Source: Phycisphaerae bacterium (lineage in GTDB: Bacteria; Planctomycetota; Phycisphaerae; Phycisphaerales; UBA5793). Taken from it: a stretch of 64,000 nt of DNA. The stretch spans positions 2,132 through 66,131 of the forward strand of contig JBDIVQ010000005.1 in assembly GCA_039794345.1 (NCBI GenBank). Direction: 5' to 3'. The notes under the pieces are model-generated. The model did no database searches. It saw nothing but the letters and a program-made list of their open reading frames with translations, and was not told the DNA's origin. Of this stretch, positions 34,089-39,694 are shown in pieces. The position numbers and the translations under genes were made by a program. Numbering within the stretch: the first letter of the stretch is position 1; each line of letters starts with the position of its first letter.

Positions 34089-36131
34089 GTGATGACCAGC
34101 GCCCTGAGCGCCCATCTCGCTCTGCACGCTTCGCCGACGCTCGCGTCGGCGGCGGAAGCGGTGCGCCTCGGCGTGCCGGTCGAGTGGATTCCCTTCGCGC
34201 CGCTCCTGGCCGCGGTGCTGTGCGGCATTCTGGCCCTGCGCCCCGGCGACGCCCGCGCCCGCTATGCCGGCGCGATCTGCGTCGCCGGACTGGGCCTGGC
34301 CTTTCTGACTTCCGTCGCGGTCGCCGTCAGCATCGGCCACGGCACGGCCCAGGAGACGATCTTCGAGTGGATCCGCTTCGACCGCCTTCGCGCCGACTTC
34401 GCCTTCTTCCTCGATCCGCTCACAAGCATCATGCTTCTCGTCGTGACGGGCATCGGCACGCTCGTGGCGGTGTACGCCTCGGAGTACATGCGCGGCGACC
34501 GCGGCTATGCGCGATTCTTCGCCTTTGTCAGTCTCTTCATCACAGCGATGACGACGCTGGTGCTCGCCGACAACCTCATCCTCATGTACCTCGGATGGGA
34601 GGGGGTGGGGCTGTGCTCGTATCTGCTCATCGGGTTCTACTACGAGAAGCCCGCCGCCGTCGCCGCCGCCAAGAAGGCGTTCATCGTCAACCGCGTCGGC
34701 GACCTCGGCTTTGCGCTGGGCATCTGCCTGGCGTACGTGCAATTCGGCAGCGTCGAGTTCGCGGTGATCTTTGAGCAGGTCGAAGCGCTGCGGGCGTCGG
34801 GCGCTGAGATCTCGACGGCGATCCAGGCGATCCCCTTCCTGCTCATGCTCGGCGCGTTCGGCAAGAGCGCGCAACTGCCGCTGTACGTCTGGCTGCCGGA
34901 TGCGATGGAAGGCCCGACGCCGGTTTCGGCCCTTATCCACGCCGCGACGATGGTGACGGCGGGCGTCTATCTCATCGCCCGCACGCTGCCCCTGTTTCTG
35001 CTCAGCGAGTACGCCCTGCCGACGGTCGCGTGGGTGGGCTGCCTGACGGCGGTCTTCTCCGCGACCATCGGCATGGCGCAGTACGACATCAAGCGCATCT
35101 TCGCCTACTCGACCGTTTCGCAACTGGGCTACATGTTCATGGGGCTGGGGGTGCTCAGCAGCGTCGGCGCGACCTTTCACCTCTTTACCCACGCCTTTTT
35201 CAAGGCGGCGCTCTTCCTCGGCTGCGGCGCGGTGATGCACGGCTTTGCGGGGCAACTCGATCTGCGCCGCCTTTCGGGCCTTGGCCGCGTGCCGGGCTGG
35301 CAGATCGTGACGGGTTCGATGCTCGTGGCCTGCCTCGCGCTGGCCGGGTTTCCGCTCACCTCCGGGTTTTTCAGCAAGGACATGATTCTGGCCGAAGCGT
35401 TCGTCACGCCCGGGCCGGGATATCGCGCGATCGGCTGGATCGGGCTGCTGACGGCGGGGATGACGGCGTACTACACCTTCCGGGTCTTCTTCCGCGTCTT
35501 CCTCGGCCCGGTGCAGTATCACCCCGGCGAAGAGCATCACGGACACGACGATGCCCATCATTTTCACCCGCACGCGCCGGGGCCGGCGATCAACTTCGTG
35601 CTCATCGTGCTGGGCATCGGCGCGATCTTCGCCGGCTGGGTCGGCGTCGGCGGCGCGCATCATGGGTGGTTCGGCTCGATGATCCATCACTCGACGGCGG
35701 CGTACGAAGCGCCGGCCGGCGCAGCGCACGGCGGCTTTTTCAGCAACCCGCACCAGTGGATGATGCTCGCGTCGTCGATCGTCGGACTCGTGGGCATCGG
35801 TGTTGCCGCATATCTGCACCTGCTCAACAGGCCGATGGCCGAGCGCCTGCGCCGAGCGATCCTGCCGGTCGCGGTTCTTGCGGAGCACAAGTGGTGCGTG
35901 GATGAGGGCTATGACCTGCTCATCCGCCGTCCGCTGCGGTTCATCGGGCACGTCTGCTACGCGCTTGGCGACACGCTCATCATCAACGGGCTGGTCGCGC
36001 TGGGCGGGGCGGTCCCGCGACTCATTGGCGCCGCGGTGCGGCCGATGCAGAACGGCCGACTTCAGGGCTACGGCCTCGGAATGGCCGGCGGGCTGGCCAC
36101 CATCATCATCATCGTCTGGGTCATGCTGTGA
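34089..36131 (+). CDS. nuoL: NADH-quinone oxidoreductase subunit L
   Basis: 680 aa antiporter-like subunit (YLGWEGVGLCSYLLIGFYYEK, KSAQLPLYVWLPDAMEGPTPVSALIHAATMVTAG). Confidence 0.93.
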   Translation: MMTSALSAHLALHASPTLASAAEAVRLGVPVEWIPFAPLLAAVLCGILALRPGDARARYAGAICVAGLGLAFLTSVAVAVSIGHGTAQETIFEWIRFDRLRADFAFFLDPLTSIMLLVVTGIGTLVAVYASEYMRGDRGYARFFAFVSLFITAMTTLVLADNLILMYLGWEGVGLCSYLLIGFYYEKPAAVAAAKKAFIVNRVGDLGFALGICLAYVQFGSVEFAVIFEQVEALRASGAEISTAIQAIPFLLMLGAFGKSAQLPLYVWLPDAMEGPTPVSALIHAATMVTAGVYLIARTLPLFLLSEYALPTVAWVGCLTAVFSATIGMAQYDIKRIFAYSTVSQLGYMFMGLGVLSSVGATFHLFTHAFFKAALFLGCGAVMHGFAGQLDLRRLSGLGRVPGWQIVTGSMLVACLALAGFPLTSGFFSKDMILAEAFVTPGPGYRAIGWIGLLTAGMTAYYTFRVFFRVFLGPVQYHPGEEHHGHDDAHHFHPHAPGPAINFVLIVLGIGAIFAGWVGVGGAHHGWFGSMIHHSTAAYEAPAGAAHGGFFSNPHQWMMLASSIVGLVGIGVAAYLHLLNRPMAERLRRAILPVAVLAEHKWCVDEGYDLLIRRPLRFIGHVCYALGDTLIINGLVALGGAVPRLIGAAVRPMQNGRLQGYGLGMAGGLATIIIIVWVML

Positions 36132-36138
36132 GCTCATC

Positions 36139-36324
36139 AGAACCAACCACAGAGATTAAGAACCAACCACAGAGAACACAGAGGACACAGAGGATGAACA
36201 GAGTTGGATTGAGAGTCGAAGTCGAAGTCGAGGACATGATGTGAAGTCGAGTGAGGTTTCTGAGATTGAAATGAACTGCATTCCCCTCTGTGCGCCCTCA
36301 GTGTCCTCAGTGTTCTCTGTGGTT
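36139..36324. repeat. low-GC inverted-repeat (MITE-like or structured-RNA) element in the nuoL-nuoM spacer
   Basis: Arms: aaccacagagaacacagaggacacagagg (36165..36193) and cccctctgtgcgccctcagtgtcctcagtgttctctgtggtt (36283..36324). They are complementary at about 34 of 39 positions. There is also a perfect 17-nt tandem duplication agaaccaaccacagaga (36139..36155, 36159..36175) and agtcga micro-repeats in the centre. Confidence 0.75.
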
Positions 36325-36350
36325 GCATCTGTTTCGACGTTTGTAGAGCC

Positions 36351-37943
36351 ATGCTGCTGACGCTGCTGCTCATCCCGATCCTCACCGCCTTCGTGCTGAT
36401 GCTGCGCCCCGCGCGGCAGGCGGCGCTGATTGCGCTGATCGGCTCGCTGGCTGCGTTCGCCTGGTCCCTGCTCGTCTGGCGCTCGTTTGACTTTGACGCG
36501 AGCGCGACGATGCAGTTGACGGCGGCGTGGACGTGGATCGAGCCGCTGGGACTGCGCCTCTCGTTGGGCGTCGATTCCATCGCGCTCATGCTCGTGATGC
36601 TCACCGCGGCCCTGACGCCGCTGGCTATCCTCGGCTCGTGGACGGCGATCACGCAGCGCATCCGCGAGTTCTACCTCTGGCTGCTCATCCTCGAAGCGGC
36701 GATGCTCGGCGTCTTTGTCGCCCGCGACCTGCTCGTCTTCTACATCGCCTTCGAGTTCACCCTCGTTCCGATGTATTTCCTCATCGCGGTCTACGGCTCG
36801 ACGAACCGCGCCCGCGCCTCGATCGTCTTCTTCCTCTACACCTTCACCGGCTCGATCATCACCCTCGTCGGCCTGGTCTATGTCGCCTGGGCGCACTGGG
36901 ACACGAACGGGCACTGGACGCTCGACATTTCGGCGCTGACGGCGACGGCGTCGGCCATGAGCACGTCGCAGCAGGCGTGGGTCCTGCTGGCGCTGTGCTG
37001 CGGCTTTGCCGTGAAGGTGCCGCTCTTCCCGGTGCACACCTGGCTGCCGCTGGCGCACACGGAAGCGCCGACGGCGGGGAGCGTCATTCTCGCGGCCGTG
37101 CTGCTCAAACTCGGAACGTACGGCTTGTATCGCTTCGCCATGCCGATGTGTCCGGCGGCGTTTCACGAGTATGCGCCGGTCATCGCCGTGCTGTGCATCA
37201 TCGGCATCATCTACGGCGCGCTCATCTGCTGGGTGCAGCGCGACATGAAGCGCCTCATCGCCTATTCCTCGGTCAGCCACCTCGGATTCTGCGTGCTCGG
37301 GCTGGCGGCCGTCAACGAGGCTGGAGTCGGCGGATCGGTCATGTACATGATCAATCACGGCCTCTCGACCGGGGCGCTGTTCTTCTGCATCGGCATGGTC
37401 TACGAGCGCTTCCACACGCGCTCGATGGATGAACTCGGCGGGCTGGCGCGGCGCATGCCGGTGTGGACCTTCTTCACGATCTTCTTTGTCCTCAGCAGCG
37501 TCGGCCTGCCGGGGCTCAACGGCTTCGTCGGCGAGTTTCTCACCTTCTTCGGCGCCTTCACCTCGGGGCAGCCGGTGCAGGGGTTGCCGACGGCCGGGCC
37601 GCTCGGACCATGGTACGGCGCCATTGCCGCGTCGGGGATGATTCTCGCGGCGATTTACCTCCTCTACTTCGCGGGTCATCTCGTGTTCGGCACGTATCAC
37701 CTGCCCGACACGTCGCACGATGGCCACGACGATCATGCCCACACGCGCCTGCCGCGCGACCTGTCGATCCGCGAGATCGCCGTGCTGGCGCCGCTGGCGT
37801 TCCTGTGCTTCTGGCTTGGGGTGCAGCCGGGCGTGATCCTCTCGCGCATCGAGCAGCCGGTGAGTGAGATCGTCACGCACGTCAACATGGCGGCGGAGCG
37901 CTCGATGCTGATCACGGCCCTGGATTCACCGGAGGGCCGCTGA
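36351..37943 (+). CDS. nuoM: NADH-quinone oxidoreductase subunit M
   Basis: 530 aa (FYIAFEFTLVPMYFLI, VKVPLFPVHTWLPLAHTEAPTAGSVILAAVLLKLG). Confidence 0.93.
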   Translation: MLLTLLLIPILTAFVLMLRPARQAALIALIGSLAAFAWSLLVWRSFDFDASATMQLTAAWTWIEPLGLRLSLGVDSIALMLVMLTAALTPLAILGSWTAITQRIREFYLWLLILEAAMLGVFVARDLLVFYIAFEFTLVPMYFLIAVYGSTNRARASIVFFLYTFTGSIITLVGLVYVAWAHWDTNGHWTLDISALTATASAMSTSQQAWVLLALCCGFAVKVPLFPVHTWLPLAHTEAPTAGSVILAAVLLKLGTYGLYRFAMPMCPAAFHEYAPVIAVLCIIGIIYGALICWVQRDMKRLIAYSSVSHLGFCVLGLAAVNEAGVGGSVMYMINHGLSTGALFFCIGMVYERFHTRSMDELGGLARRMPVWTFFTIFFVLSSVGLPGLNGFVGEFLTFFGAFTSGQPVQGLPTAGPLGPWYGAIAASGMILAAIYLLYFAGHLVFGTYHLPDTSHDGHDDHAHTRLPRDLSIREIAVLAPLAFLCFWLGVQPGVILSRIEQPVSEIVTHVNMAAERSMLITALDSPEGR

Positions 37944-37945
37944 TC

Positions 37946-39529
37946 ATGCTTGATCGCGTCGCGACACTCTGGCCCGAGATCATTCTCTTCGTCACCGTGA
38001 TGGTTCTGATGCTCACGGGCACGAGTGGAGACAAGGACATCCGCCGCGCCGGCTTGTGGATCGCCGGCGTCGGGCTGCTCCTGGCGTTCATCTTCGCGGT
38101 GCGCATGCCTGAGCCGGAGACGCTCATGCCGGGGCTGGCGGGCTTCATGCGGCCCGCAGCGTGCGTGGTGGGGTTCCTGCTTCTGATGGGTCTGGGCAAC
38201 ATTGACTCGCGGCTCGAATCGGAGGTGGACGGCGGGCGTCGCTTCGACCCCCTCGACACGACGCAGGGCGAGCAACTCTGCTTCTTTCTCCTCTCGCTCA
38301 TCGGCCTGATGCTCTGCACGACCGCGAGCGATCTCATCTGGCTCTTCCTCGCGCTGGAGATGACGAGCCTGCCGACGTACATCATGGTCGCGCGAAGCCG
38401 CTCGAAGAAGGCGTCGCAGGAAGCGGCGGTGAAGTATTTCTTCCTCGGGGCGGCGGCGGCGGCGATCTTTCTCTACGGCTTCGCCATGCTCTACGGCGCC
38501 ACCGGCTCGCTGCACCTGCTCGACATCCGCGCAGCGCTCGAAGCGCAGGCGGCGGCGGGGGGCATCGGTTCGCTGGCCATCCTCGGCCTGACGCTGGCGA
38601 TCATCGGCGTCTCCTTCAAGATCGCGGCGGTTCCCATGCACTTCTACACAGCCGATGTCTACGAAGGGGCGGCGGCGCCGGTCACGGCCTTTCTGGCCTT
38701 CGTGCCCAAGGCGGCGGGCTTCGTCGTCCTCATGCTCCTGCTCGGCACGGCCCTGCACCTCGGCGAGGGTGGGCAGGCGTGGCCCGAGGCGATTCGCGTC
38801 CTTCTCTGGGTGCTCGCGGCGCTCACCATGACCATCGGCAACGCCCTGGCGATGTGGCAGAACCGCATCAAGCGCATCCTCGCCTACTCCTCGATCGCGC
38901 ACAGCGGTTATATGCTCGTCGGCCTTGTCGCCGCGATGGAAACGGCCGGCTCGGCGAGCGCTTCTCCGGCGACCAACGGCTTCGCGGCGGTGCTCTTCTA
39001 CATCGTCGTCTACGGCATCACCAATCTCGGCGCGTTTCTCGTCCTTGCCTGCCTTGAGCGTCGCGGCGAGGAGATCGAGACCGTTGATGACCTCGAAGGA
39101 CTCTGGAGCCGCCACGCCGGGCATGCGACGATCCTCGCGCTGTGTACGCTCTCGCTCATGGGTCTGCCGCCGCTGGTCGGGTTTTTCGCGAAGTTGTTTC
39201 TCTTCACCTCGGCGATTCGCGCGGGTGAGTACGTGCTGGTGATCATCGCCGGGCTCAACAGCGCCGCCGCGGCGTGGTACTACCTGCGACTCGCGGGCGT
39301 GGGCTGGGTGCGCCGGCCGGGTTCGAGCGCCGGCGAGATCGAGCGCACGCCGGTCGTTGCGCGGCGCTTCGCGGCCGGGGTGTCCGCCGCGACGACGATC
39401 CTCCTGCTGGCGCTCACGGCGCGGCTCATCACCGCCGGCGATCAGGCGGTGCAGTTGCGCCCCTCCGACGCGCCGCCGCACCACGCCGCGCTGTCGACTC
39501 CCGCCGCGGATGATCGGCCGCAGCGCTAG
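37946..39529 (+). CDS. nuoN: NADH-quinone oxidoreductase subunit N
   Basis: 527 aa (LALEMTSLPTYIMV, FKIAAVPMHFYTADVYEGAAAPVTAFL, AYSSIAHSGYML). Confidence 0.92.
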   Translation: MLDRVATLWPEIILFVTVMVLMLTGTSGDKDIRRAGLWIAGVGLLLAFIFAVRMPEPETLMPGLAGFMRPAACVVGFLLLMGLGNIDSRLESEVDGGRRFDPLDTTQGEQLCFFLLSLIGLMLCTTASDLIWLFLALEMTSLPTYIMVARSRSKKASQEAAVKYFFLGAAAAAIFLYGFAMLYGATGSLHLLDIRAALEAQAAAGGIGSLAILGLTLAIIGVSFKIAAVPMHFYTADVYEGAAAPVTAFLAFVPKAAGFVVLMLLLGTALHLGEGGQAWPEAIRVLLWVLAALTMTIGNALAMWQNRIKRILAYSSIAHSGYMLVGLVAAMETAGSASASPATNGFAAVLFYIVVYGITNLGAFLVLACLERRGEEIETVDDLEGLWSRHAGHATILALCTLSLMGLPPLVGFFAKLFLFTSAIRAGEYVLVIIAGLNSAAAAWYYLRLAGVGWVRRPGSSAGEIERTPVVARRFAAGVSAATTILLLALTARLITAGDQAVQLRPSDAPPHHAALSTPAADDRPQR

Positions 39530-39694
39530 CGCGTGGGGTGGCATGGCGTCGCGCTTCGCGTCGCTATGCCCGGGCGTTCCCGCACGATCGATCGTCCCTG
39601 CGCGATCTGCATAGCCAGGCGAAGCACCAGGCCATGCCACCCATCACGCGCCCGCGATCGGCTCCGATCGAATCGCCGACCATACGATCTTCAC

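Follow-up and report, generated by a model that had tools for sequence, protein, structure and literature searches.

Why does a core respiratory operon with tightly packed genes have a 219-nt gap between nuoL and nuoM? In the DNA that we analyzed (a stretch of 64 kb, hereafter the window), the other junctions between nuo genes are short: according to the ORF coordinates, nuoK and nuoL are 4 nt apart, nuoM and nuoN are 2 nt apart, and nuoJ and nuoK overlap by 4 nt. NCBIfam identifies the flanking ORFs as NuoK, NuoL, NuoM, and NuoN, and the N-terminus of NuoM (MLLTLLLIP) is kept in relatives. In 100-nt windows, the GC content of the spacer is 0.47-0.49, versus 0.60-0.79 for the flanking genes and a background of about 67%, and the lowest-GC 200-nt bin in all 64 kb (0.52) is this spacer. 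A preliminary description of the locus had pointed to both the long gap amid tight junctions and its A/T-richness, and it was right about both.

We argue that the spacer is likely to be one copy of a dispersed, noncoding palindromic repeat of the REP/MITE kind, which was inserted into a junction that was originally tight. The features of the region are:

nuoL, the upstream cistron: 34089..36131, + strand; NADH-quinone oxidoreductase subunit L (NCBIfam NF005141, E = 6.9e-193)
nuoL-nuoM spacer: 36132..36350, + strand; 219 nt, about 48% GC, nearly all of it the inserted element
17-nt direct duplication: 36139..36175, no strand; perfect copies of AGAACCAACCACAGAGA at 36139-36155 and 36159-36175
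Left arm: 36159..36203, no strand; purine-rich, with AACCACAGAGAACACAGAGG and three 9-nt CACAGAGGA units (36168-36194)
Centre: 36204..36285, no strand; purine-rich and not self-complementary, with three AGTCGA (36214-36231) and one more GAAGTCGAG
Right arm: 36286..36330, no strand; pyrimidine-rich, with 2.9 units of CCTCAGTGT at 36296-36321
Tail, from the element to the nuoM ATG: 36331..36350, + strand; partly alignable with the tail in the relative L127
nuoM, the downstream cistron: 36351..37943, + strand; TIGR01972 (NDH_I_M), E = 5.4e-161
nuoN: 37946-39529, + strand; named by NCBIfam

The element is about 190 nt long and noncoding, and it sits past the nuoL stop and ahead of the nuoM start. 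Its inverted arms are 45 nt each (36159-36203 and 36286-36330) and 84% complementary, which is slightly wider than the imperfect arms of about 39 nt that had been described, and they are the longest of the 15 inverted repeats in the window. With these limits, the right arm ends 20 nt before the nuoM ATG. (The distance had been given as 27 nt; with the earlier arm limits it is 26 nt.) An exact 15-mer and an exact 17-mer are present on both arms, and the right arm is the reverse complement of a 20-mer in the left arm, with T at the variable position. Each arm is built from 9-nt units of the form CAC-N-GAG-R-A, beginning AACCACAGAG, while the centre has unrelated 6-nt words. Comparable words (GAAGTT) come after the arm in a Nitrospirae locus (L027). 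Of the 12 CACAGAG or CACTGAG words in the window (on either strand), 8 are inside the spacer. The perfect 17-nt duplication at the left end and the central AGTCGA repeats are both present as first reported. The two 17-nt copies are separated by TTA, so that they are spaced 20 nt apart; the duplication repeats the outer end of the left arm, and in a repeat search, the first copy could also pair with 36314-36331.

The nuoL-nuoM junction among relatives

Comparing this spacer across relatives had been proposed as a check on its origin. The closest relatives of this NuoM are from MAGs of Phycisphaerales and Phycisphaerae, which places the source among the planctomycetes of that group, and we compared the orthologous junction in the window and in eight of these genomes:

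L155: NuoM 63% identical to the window's; spacer of 3 nt
L154: 66% identical; spacer of 3 nt
L153: 70% identical; spacer of 19 nt
L129: 77% identical; spacer of 9 nt
L152: 79% identical; spacer of 9 nt
L125: 79% identical; spacer of 134 nt
L127: 81% identical; spacer of 197 nt
L121: 90% identical; spacer of 202 nt
Window: the reference NuoM; spacer of 219 nt

Among the six closest lineages, the junction is occupied in four and empty (9 nt) in two, and in the more distant ones it is 3-19 nt. These short junctions imply that the ancestral junction was tight, so the spacer in the window is a secondary insertion.

Occupancy is patchy, and two types of element are found at the same site. In a neighbor-joining tree of NuoM and NuoN, each of the empty genomes is sister to an occupied one (L129 and L125 are 88% identical; L152 and L127 are 90% identical). 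Type A elements, with CACNGAG words, are found in the window and in L127, and these align over their whole length (z = 9.3). Type B elements, with CRCAAAG words, are found in L121 and L125, which also align (z = 6.3). The window's sister is L121, which carries type B, not type A. In other words, both the presence of the element and its type are incongruent with the host tree. This pattern would need one of three histories: several insertions at one hot spot, an ancestral tandem pair from which different lineages lost different members, or recombination. It is not the behavior of a conserved regulatory element. One and the same junction is occupied in all four carrier lineages, which counts against a simple mobile-repeat reading. 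The right-arm pattern of type A that is common to the window and L127 had 0 matches elsewhere in metagenomes.

We also noticed a second long imperfect hairpin in the window (39529-39649), directly past the nuoN stop and, in relatives, before an IPPT/miaA-type gene. Its GC-rich arms are 41 nt long and 80% complementary (fold z of -4.2), and its sequence is unrelated to that of the nuoL-nuoM element. It may be the operon's terminator or may belong to another class of repeats.

The arm sequence in other genomes

If the spacer is a repeat, then its arms should be found elsewhere, and a genome-wide search had been suggested. We scanned one genome per species (596 Gb, both strands) for exact matches to the arm 20-mer AACCACAGAGAACACNGAGG, which is on both arms. 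It is present in at least 120 genome blocks from about 20 phyla, as judged from record titles (most are MAGs, and some of the assignments may be wrong). By our arithmetic, about 4 matches would be expected by chance, given its 19 specified bases. Among the matches listed, the carriers include Planctomycetota, Chloroflexota, Nitrospirota, Verrucomicrobiota, Cyanobacteriota, Gemmatimonadota, Acidobacteriota, Myxococcota, Desulfobacterota, Bacteroidota, Spirochaetota, Cloacimonadota, Calditrichota, Armatimonadota, Omnitrophota, WOR-3, Binatia, Bacillota (Peptococcaceae), and α-, β-, and γ-Proteobacteria. The motif is also in one archaeal MAG (Ca. Argoarchaeum), on a contig whose genes (DUF2149, DUF7343, and CARDB) look archaeal. 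Isolates with the motif include Microcoleus anatoxicus, Chlorogloeopsis, two species of Iodobacter, and Thioalkalivibrio ALE14, and it is on replicons of Gemmatirosa kalamazoonensis KBS708 and Oscillatoria nigro-viridis PCC 7112. Among IMG/VR viral contigs, 20 contain the 20-mer, versus 0 with the reversed 20-mer (a control), and 7 contain the sister form with CGCAGAG words; a blastn search of a phage collection gave no match. A variant of the outer arm is in 46 metagenome contigs, with GC contents from 0.35 to 0.71.

The family is multi-copy in at least one cultured genome: the two megaplasmids of Gemmatirosa (about 1 Mb each) contain at least 38 and at least 39 copies of the CGCAGAG form (at least 77 together). 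There is no second copy of our element within the 64-kb window. When we scanned the window with a covariance model (R1) that was built from 18 elements of other phyla only, the nuoL-nuoM element was the sole match below E = 1 (E = 0.0017 and 0.004 on the two strands; these values are rough, and the element's large loop depresses its score).

What do family members look like? The flank consensus of the matches is wTTnAACCACAGAG AACACNGAGG RCACAGAG. A complementary arm lies 45-500 nt downstream in 50 of 124 matches and upstream in just 8, so the purine-rich arm comes first, and the median length of the element is 124 nt. The window's element is arranged in this way: both of its arms carry AACCACAGAG AACACNGAGG, with the purine-rich arm first. 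The interiors are unrelated between genomes, and often contain other short tandem words or a second, nested hairpin. The palindrome often extends outward into A/T-rich layers that are lineage-specific, as seen in flank logos of 66 elements.

Elements can also be layered within a genome. In Gemmatirosa, composites with outer CGCAGAG arms around a full inner CACAGAG hairpin recur at four loci with identical linkers, which implies that they are copied as whole units. The extreme tip varies in sequence and length among the Gemmatirosa copies. On the megaplasmids of G. kalamazoonensis, we observed "onion" palindromes (L151 19952-20137 and 6588-6719; L202 25271-25406, 28153-28280, and 38028-38146) in which a complete inner AACCACAGAGG hairpin lies between outer TGAACCGCAGAGG arms; the inner stem GAAACCA..TGGTTTC is kept, and the tip is 8-14 nt of varying sequence and length. 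Elsewhere, one Desulfococcaceae MAG has at least 8 copies of another MITE, about 150 nt long (L033, L036, L047, L049, L050, L090, and L096), with 22-nt terminal inverted repeats (TATAATACCAATTCKCCATTGA) and CACAGAG words in its interior, which suggests that the words travel as a module within other repeats. In a Calditrichia MAG (L014 3526-4193), a 284-bp tandem unit consists of a hairpin with CGCAAAG words and then an arm with CACAGAG words.

The matches are mostly intergenic: at loci at or below 56% GC, 101 of 116 (87%) are outside of called ORFs. The gaps that they occupy are convergent (19), divergent (14), or co-directional (47) roughly as for background gaps (55, 72, and 195), without a terminator-like or clear gene-3'-end bias. 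The neighbors are unrelated housekeeping genes. For example, in Iodobacter, hairpins occupy gaps between genes for an M81 peptidase, an Fe-ADH, and an aldehyde dehydrogenase; in a Phycisphaerae MAG, hairpins separate the Maf, SPASM, and NeuB genes. Where a pair of arms encloses genes, the content is also housekeeping (murB..ftsZ in a Nitrospirae MAG; sugar-modification genes). In some places the order of the arms is reversed, with CTCTGTGGTT, a short gap, and then AACCACAGAG, at the boundaries of gene clusters (L019 393-446, 2360-2405, and 6979-7021; L027 444 and 5798), which implies that whole operons are bracketed by a left and a right arm. In two Chloroflexota genomes (Phototrophicaceae and Anaerolineae MAGs; L039 near 6205 and L055 near 4446), the element is upstream of the same syntenic gene pair, at different distances from it (about 230 vs. 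25 nt). The two genomes may share an old insertion here, or the site may be another hot spot.

We looked for hallmarks of transposition as well. Flank logos of 66 elements gave no target-site duplication, and revealed instead the extension of the palindrome (wTTnAA/CC...GG/TTnAAw); a candidate duplication of TNA failed on inspection. The 17-nt duplication in the window is one-sided and does not flank both ends. In tblastn searches of the window and about 200 loci (about 1.4 Mb), probes for RayT and IS200 TnpA had no match; these probes were approximate sequences, and we give the result low weight, as the search would miss a single-copy gene located elsewhere in these genomes. Beside 120 matches, a search for a recurrent neighboring protein or a transposase turned up only generic families (ABC transporters, response regulators, and similar), and a parent autonomous IS with matching ends was not found among the neighbors of the matches or between gene-enclosing arm pairs. 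The MITE-like reading in the preliminary description largely stands. The secondary insertion, the patchy occupancy, the two types at one site, and the dispersed family favor it; as for classical hallmarks of a MITE, we found no target-site duplication, no cognate transposase, and no second copy in 64 kb.

Function or passenger

Could the spacer have been selected as RNA? Folding of the junction, another of the suggested checks, predicts a stable hairpin. The RNA of this region folds at -94.3 kcal/mol, with z = -4.8 on the + strand (-5.0 in a second run) and -4.3 on the - strand, and 0 of 200 shuffles folded as well. The base of the predicted hairpin runs from 7 nt past the nuoL stop to about 20 nt short of the nuoM AUG. 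In the minimum free energy structure, the tail (36331..36350) pairs with the last codons of nuoL, and in both the window and L121, a predicted outer helix joins the last nuoL codons to the region of the nuoM AUG. The end of nuoL (GTCATGCTGTGA, 36120-36131) and the start of nuoM (CCATGCTGCTGAC, 36345-36361) both contain ATGCTG, and the predicted structures of the window and of L121 pair them at the hairpin's base.

The preliminary description had offered, besides a MITE, an mRNA stem-loop. Such a cis-acting hairpin would set the stability or processing of nuoA-L apart from that of nuoM-N, or would gate the ribosome-binding site of nuoM. The very stable predicted fold, its start just past the nuoL stop, the outer helix in two genomes, and the retention of some hairpin at this junction in four related lineages all fit with this idea. 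As a selected function, though, it fares poorly. The fold was lost in two of the four occupied orthologues: the predicted z is -5.0 for the window and -5.1 for L121, but -0.6 for L125 and -1.3 for L127, and folds this weak would be expected of copies that have decayed from a consensus. A junction of 3-19 nt suffices in two close relatives and in every distant one; the same arms adjoin unrelated genes in about 20 phyla; and a search of Rfam gave no relevant match for the window, even at E = 10, and none over the hairpins in 17 other loci.

The family also lacks compensatory changes. We aligned 18 short elements from other phyla and scored each on its obvious hairpin. Paired cells amounted to 84.9%, versus 86.0% in shuffles of the 3' letters (493 of 500 shuffles were as high), so there was no covariation above that of shuffles across these 18 elements. 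The variable columns (positions between words, and the N within a word) are unpaired in 7-11 of the 18 elements, while the words in the arms are invariant across phyla. Each arm conserves its word sequence rather than base pairing: the complementarity of the arms follows from the words that they share and not from any upkeep of pairing. We consider a selected stem-loop at this junction rather improbable, and it is unlikely that the spacer is a dedicated regulatory RNA of the nuo operon.

Letter-for-letter conservation of 20-35 nt of arm across phyla is atypical of REPs or MITEs, and it could point to a host function. At the level of DNA, for example, a nucleoid-associated or regulatory protein might bind an array of CACNGAG words, which would act as an insulator or would regulate genes downstream. 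Constraint on the words of each arm and not on pairing, their invariance across phyla, and the fixed polarity of the arms (a partner downstream in 50 cases and upstream in 8) are what such an array would lead us to expect. Yet the family occupies all types of intergenic regions, without association with any genes, and its presence varies between genomes at about 90% identity. A lineage-specific regulator is also hard to reconcile with the motif's occurrence in viral contigs and in an archaeal MAG, and we know of no candidate protein for these words. We think that a binding-site array used by the host is quite unlikely.

Another idea is that the A/T-richer spacer is an internal promoter that gives nuoM-N an independent transcript. 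This would suit the lowest-GC segment of the window, and translational coupling would be lost across 219 nt. A scan for sigma-70-like promoters, which covers planctomycete promoters poorly, had no match; the 3-9 nt junctions of relatives leave no room for a promoter; and the repeat family accounts for the sequence of the spacer. This makes a promoter very unlikely as the explanation. Finally, a solitary attC-like site of an integron, or a remnant of a cassette array, is largely refuted and has hardly any probability left: the palindrome is imperfect with a variable centre, its ends (wTTnAACC...GGTTnAAw) loosely resemble RYYYAAC...GTTRRRY, and the phyla with chromosomal integrons overlap those of the family, but copies sit beside genes of ordinary operons (nuo, dcw, M81 peptidase/ADH/ALDH, and neuB) with no cassette arrays and no integrase nearby, and the core sites misfit the window's copy, whose right end is GTTGCAT.

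Several simpler identities were also set aside. An intrinsic terminator, in which a short GC-rich hairpin runs directly into a U tract, does not fit, as there is no terminator-like site in 35600-36900 and the arm is followed by GCATCTGTTTCG. No tRNA or tmRNA was found in the window. A DnaA box (TTnAACCACA vs. TTATCCACA) mismatches at the key T, and an archaeal copy of the element exists. Pairing of a Shine-Dalgarno-like GGAGG across the arms leaves the CAC part of each word unexplained. For a Type III restriction site (CAGAG), the variable position is not conserved, and the resemblance to a tRNA T-arm (GGTTCAAATC) comes without the closing stem.

This brings us back to an inserted repeat, and the element in the nuo operon is probably a selfish one that is tolerated between cistrons as a passenger. 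We suggest that such elements are copied at the DNA level by some trans-acting enzyme that recognizes the words in each arm, and that copies, once fixed, decay. Local decay is rapid, yet the consensus is intact in about 20 phyla, which suggests that intact copies are young and are continually renewed. A copy within an operon might be tolerated because its transcript would collapse into a compact hairpin, in which the stop of nuoL and the start of nuoM are predicted to be no more than about 30 nt apart. As the last nuoL codons are predicted to pair with the nuoM start, ribosomes that finish nuoL could unmask nuoM. (This is a speculative route by which translational coupling might survive.) Going by the predicted fold, side effects on mRNA stability or on the initiation of nuoM are possible: the hairpin might act as a barrier to 3' exonucleases, might be a double-stranded target for RNase III, or might mask the start of nuoM. 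Effects of REPs on mRNA decay are established for E. coli, and by analogy, a similar effect of this element is possible.

Comparison with known repeats

The anomaly in a core respiratory operon is thus explained by an insertion and not by a regulatory invention, and the interest of this locus rests more with the wider family than with the nuo copy. Palindromic repeats of small size are usually restricted to one lineage. In this family, a single arm sequence is found unchanged in Planctomycetota, Chloroflexota, Nitrospirota, Cyanobacteriota, Gemmatimonadota, Pseudomonadota, and others, even though single copies decay fast, within a clade of genus level, which implies ongoing renewal of intact copies in many lineages. 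We searched the full text of the literature for the arm strings and for related ideas and met no account of the family, which appears to be undescribed, although absence from these searches is not proof of novelty. More tentatively, and with more doubt than confidence, we propose that the element belongs to an undescribed family of "word-built" palindromes that spans phyla and possibly domains. If so, then a copying route with a broad host range, or else a widely conserved factor that recognizes CACNGAG words, would be required; to our knowledge, there is no described example of either. The agent that copies or recognizes the words (a transposase, a nuclease or repair pathway that acts at the centres of palindromes, or a phage-borne function) could reveal a new and very widespread system for mobility or for recognizing DNA or RNA. 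There are culturable carriers (Gemmatirosa kalamazoonensis, Iodobacter, and Microcoleus), so the question is testable. On the practical side, the family gives rise to spurious ORFs, and to breaks in the assemblies, of environmental genomes.

Among known kinds of repeats, the element works like a REP/REPIN or a MITE, yet it lacks defining features of each. It has the form of a MITE, with terminal inverted repeats, a small size (about 190 nt), and no ORF. Bacterial MITEs such as Correia/NEMIS, ERIC, RUP, Nezha, and Chunjie are likewise ORF-less, 50-400 bp long, bounded by terminal inverted repeats, and dispersed between genes. They can be co-transcribed with operons, and whole composite units are copied, as in Gemmatirosa here. 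In contrast to MITEs, neither a target-site duplication nor a parent IS with shared ends was found for our family; the interior or loop is not constant in sequence or length, even among the copies of a single genome; and the palindrome often runs on into lineage-specific outer layers.

The small dispersed repeats (SDRs) of Nostocaceae, reportedly described by Elhai et al. in 2008, are said to be very small and apparently mobile, to lack a known transposase, and to nest inside other repeats and hairpins. Being very small and apparently mobile, they resemble our family, which we set beside them by description only. In the account given in PMC5861425, SDRs are reported only in Nostocaceae. The repetitive hairpin elements of organelles (the RHE of sponge mitochondria, PMC2800124, and the double-hairpin elements of fungi) are also selfish, intergenic, and repeatedly invading, and their mechanism of spread is unexplained; they differ in being from another domain of life and in having unrelated sequences.

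The REP/BIME elements and REPINs of Proteobacteria (for example, the malE-malF REP of E. coli and the REPINs of Pseudomonas) are short, noncoding, extragenic, multi-copy palindromes that are often clustered or nested. Like our element, they are sited between the cistrons of operons, form RNA hairpins, have arms that are more conserved than their loops, and are patchy among relatives. In contrast to our family, in which the arm is identical in about 20 phyla, REP families are lineage-specific, and our family lacks a clear bias towards the 3' ends of genes. The arm here is a purine-rich direct run of 9-nt words and is not itself a small palindrome. REPs and REPINs are defined by a GTAG or CGTC tag that ends a palindromic unit of 20-40 nt (PMC3733652); our family has no such tag, and its arms begin with AACC. 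REPs and REPINs are also associated with a RAYT gene (a Y1 HUH transposase), for which our weak probes had no match in the window and about 200 loci. Di Nocera et al. noted that "untagged" families of palindromic repeats exist and that many more are likely (PMC3733652). The family described here would be one of these untagged families, unusual in its breadth across phyla and in its layered architecture, built from words.
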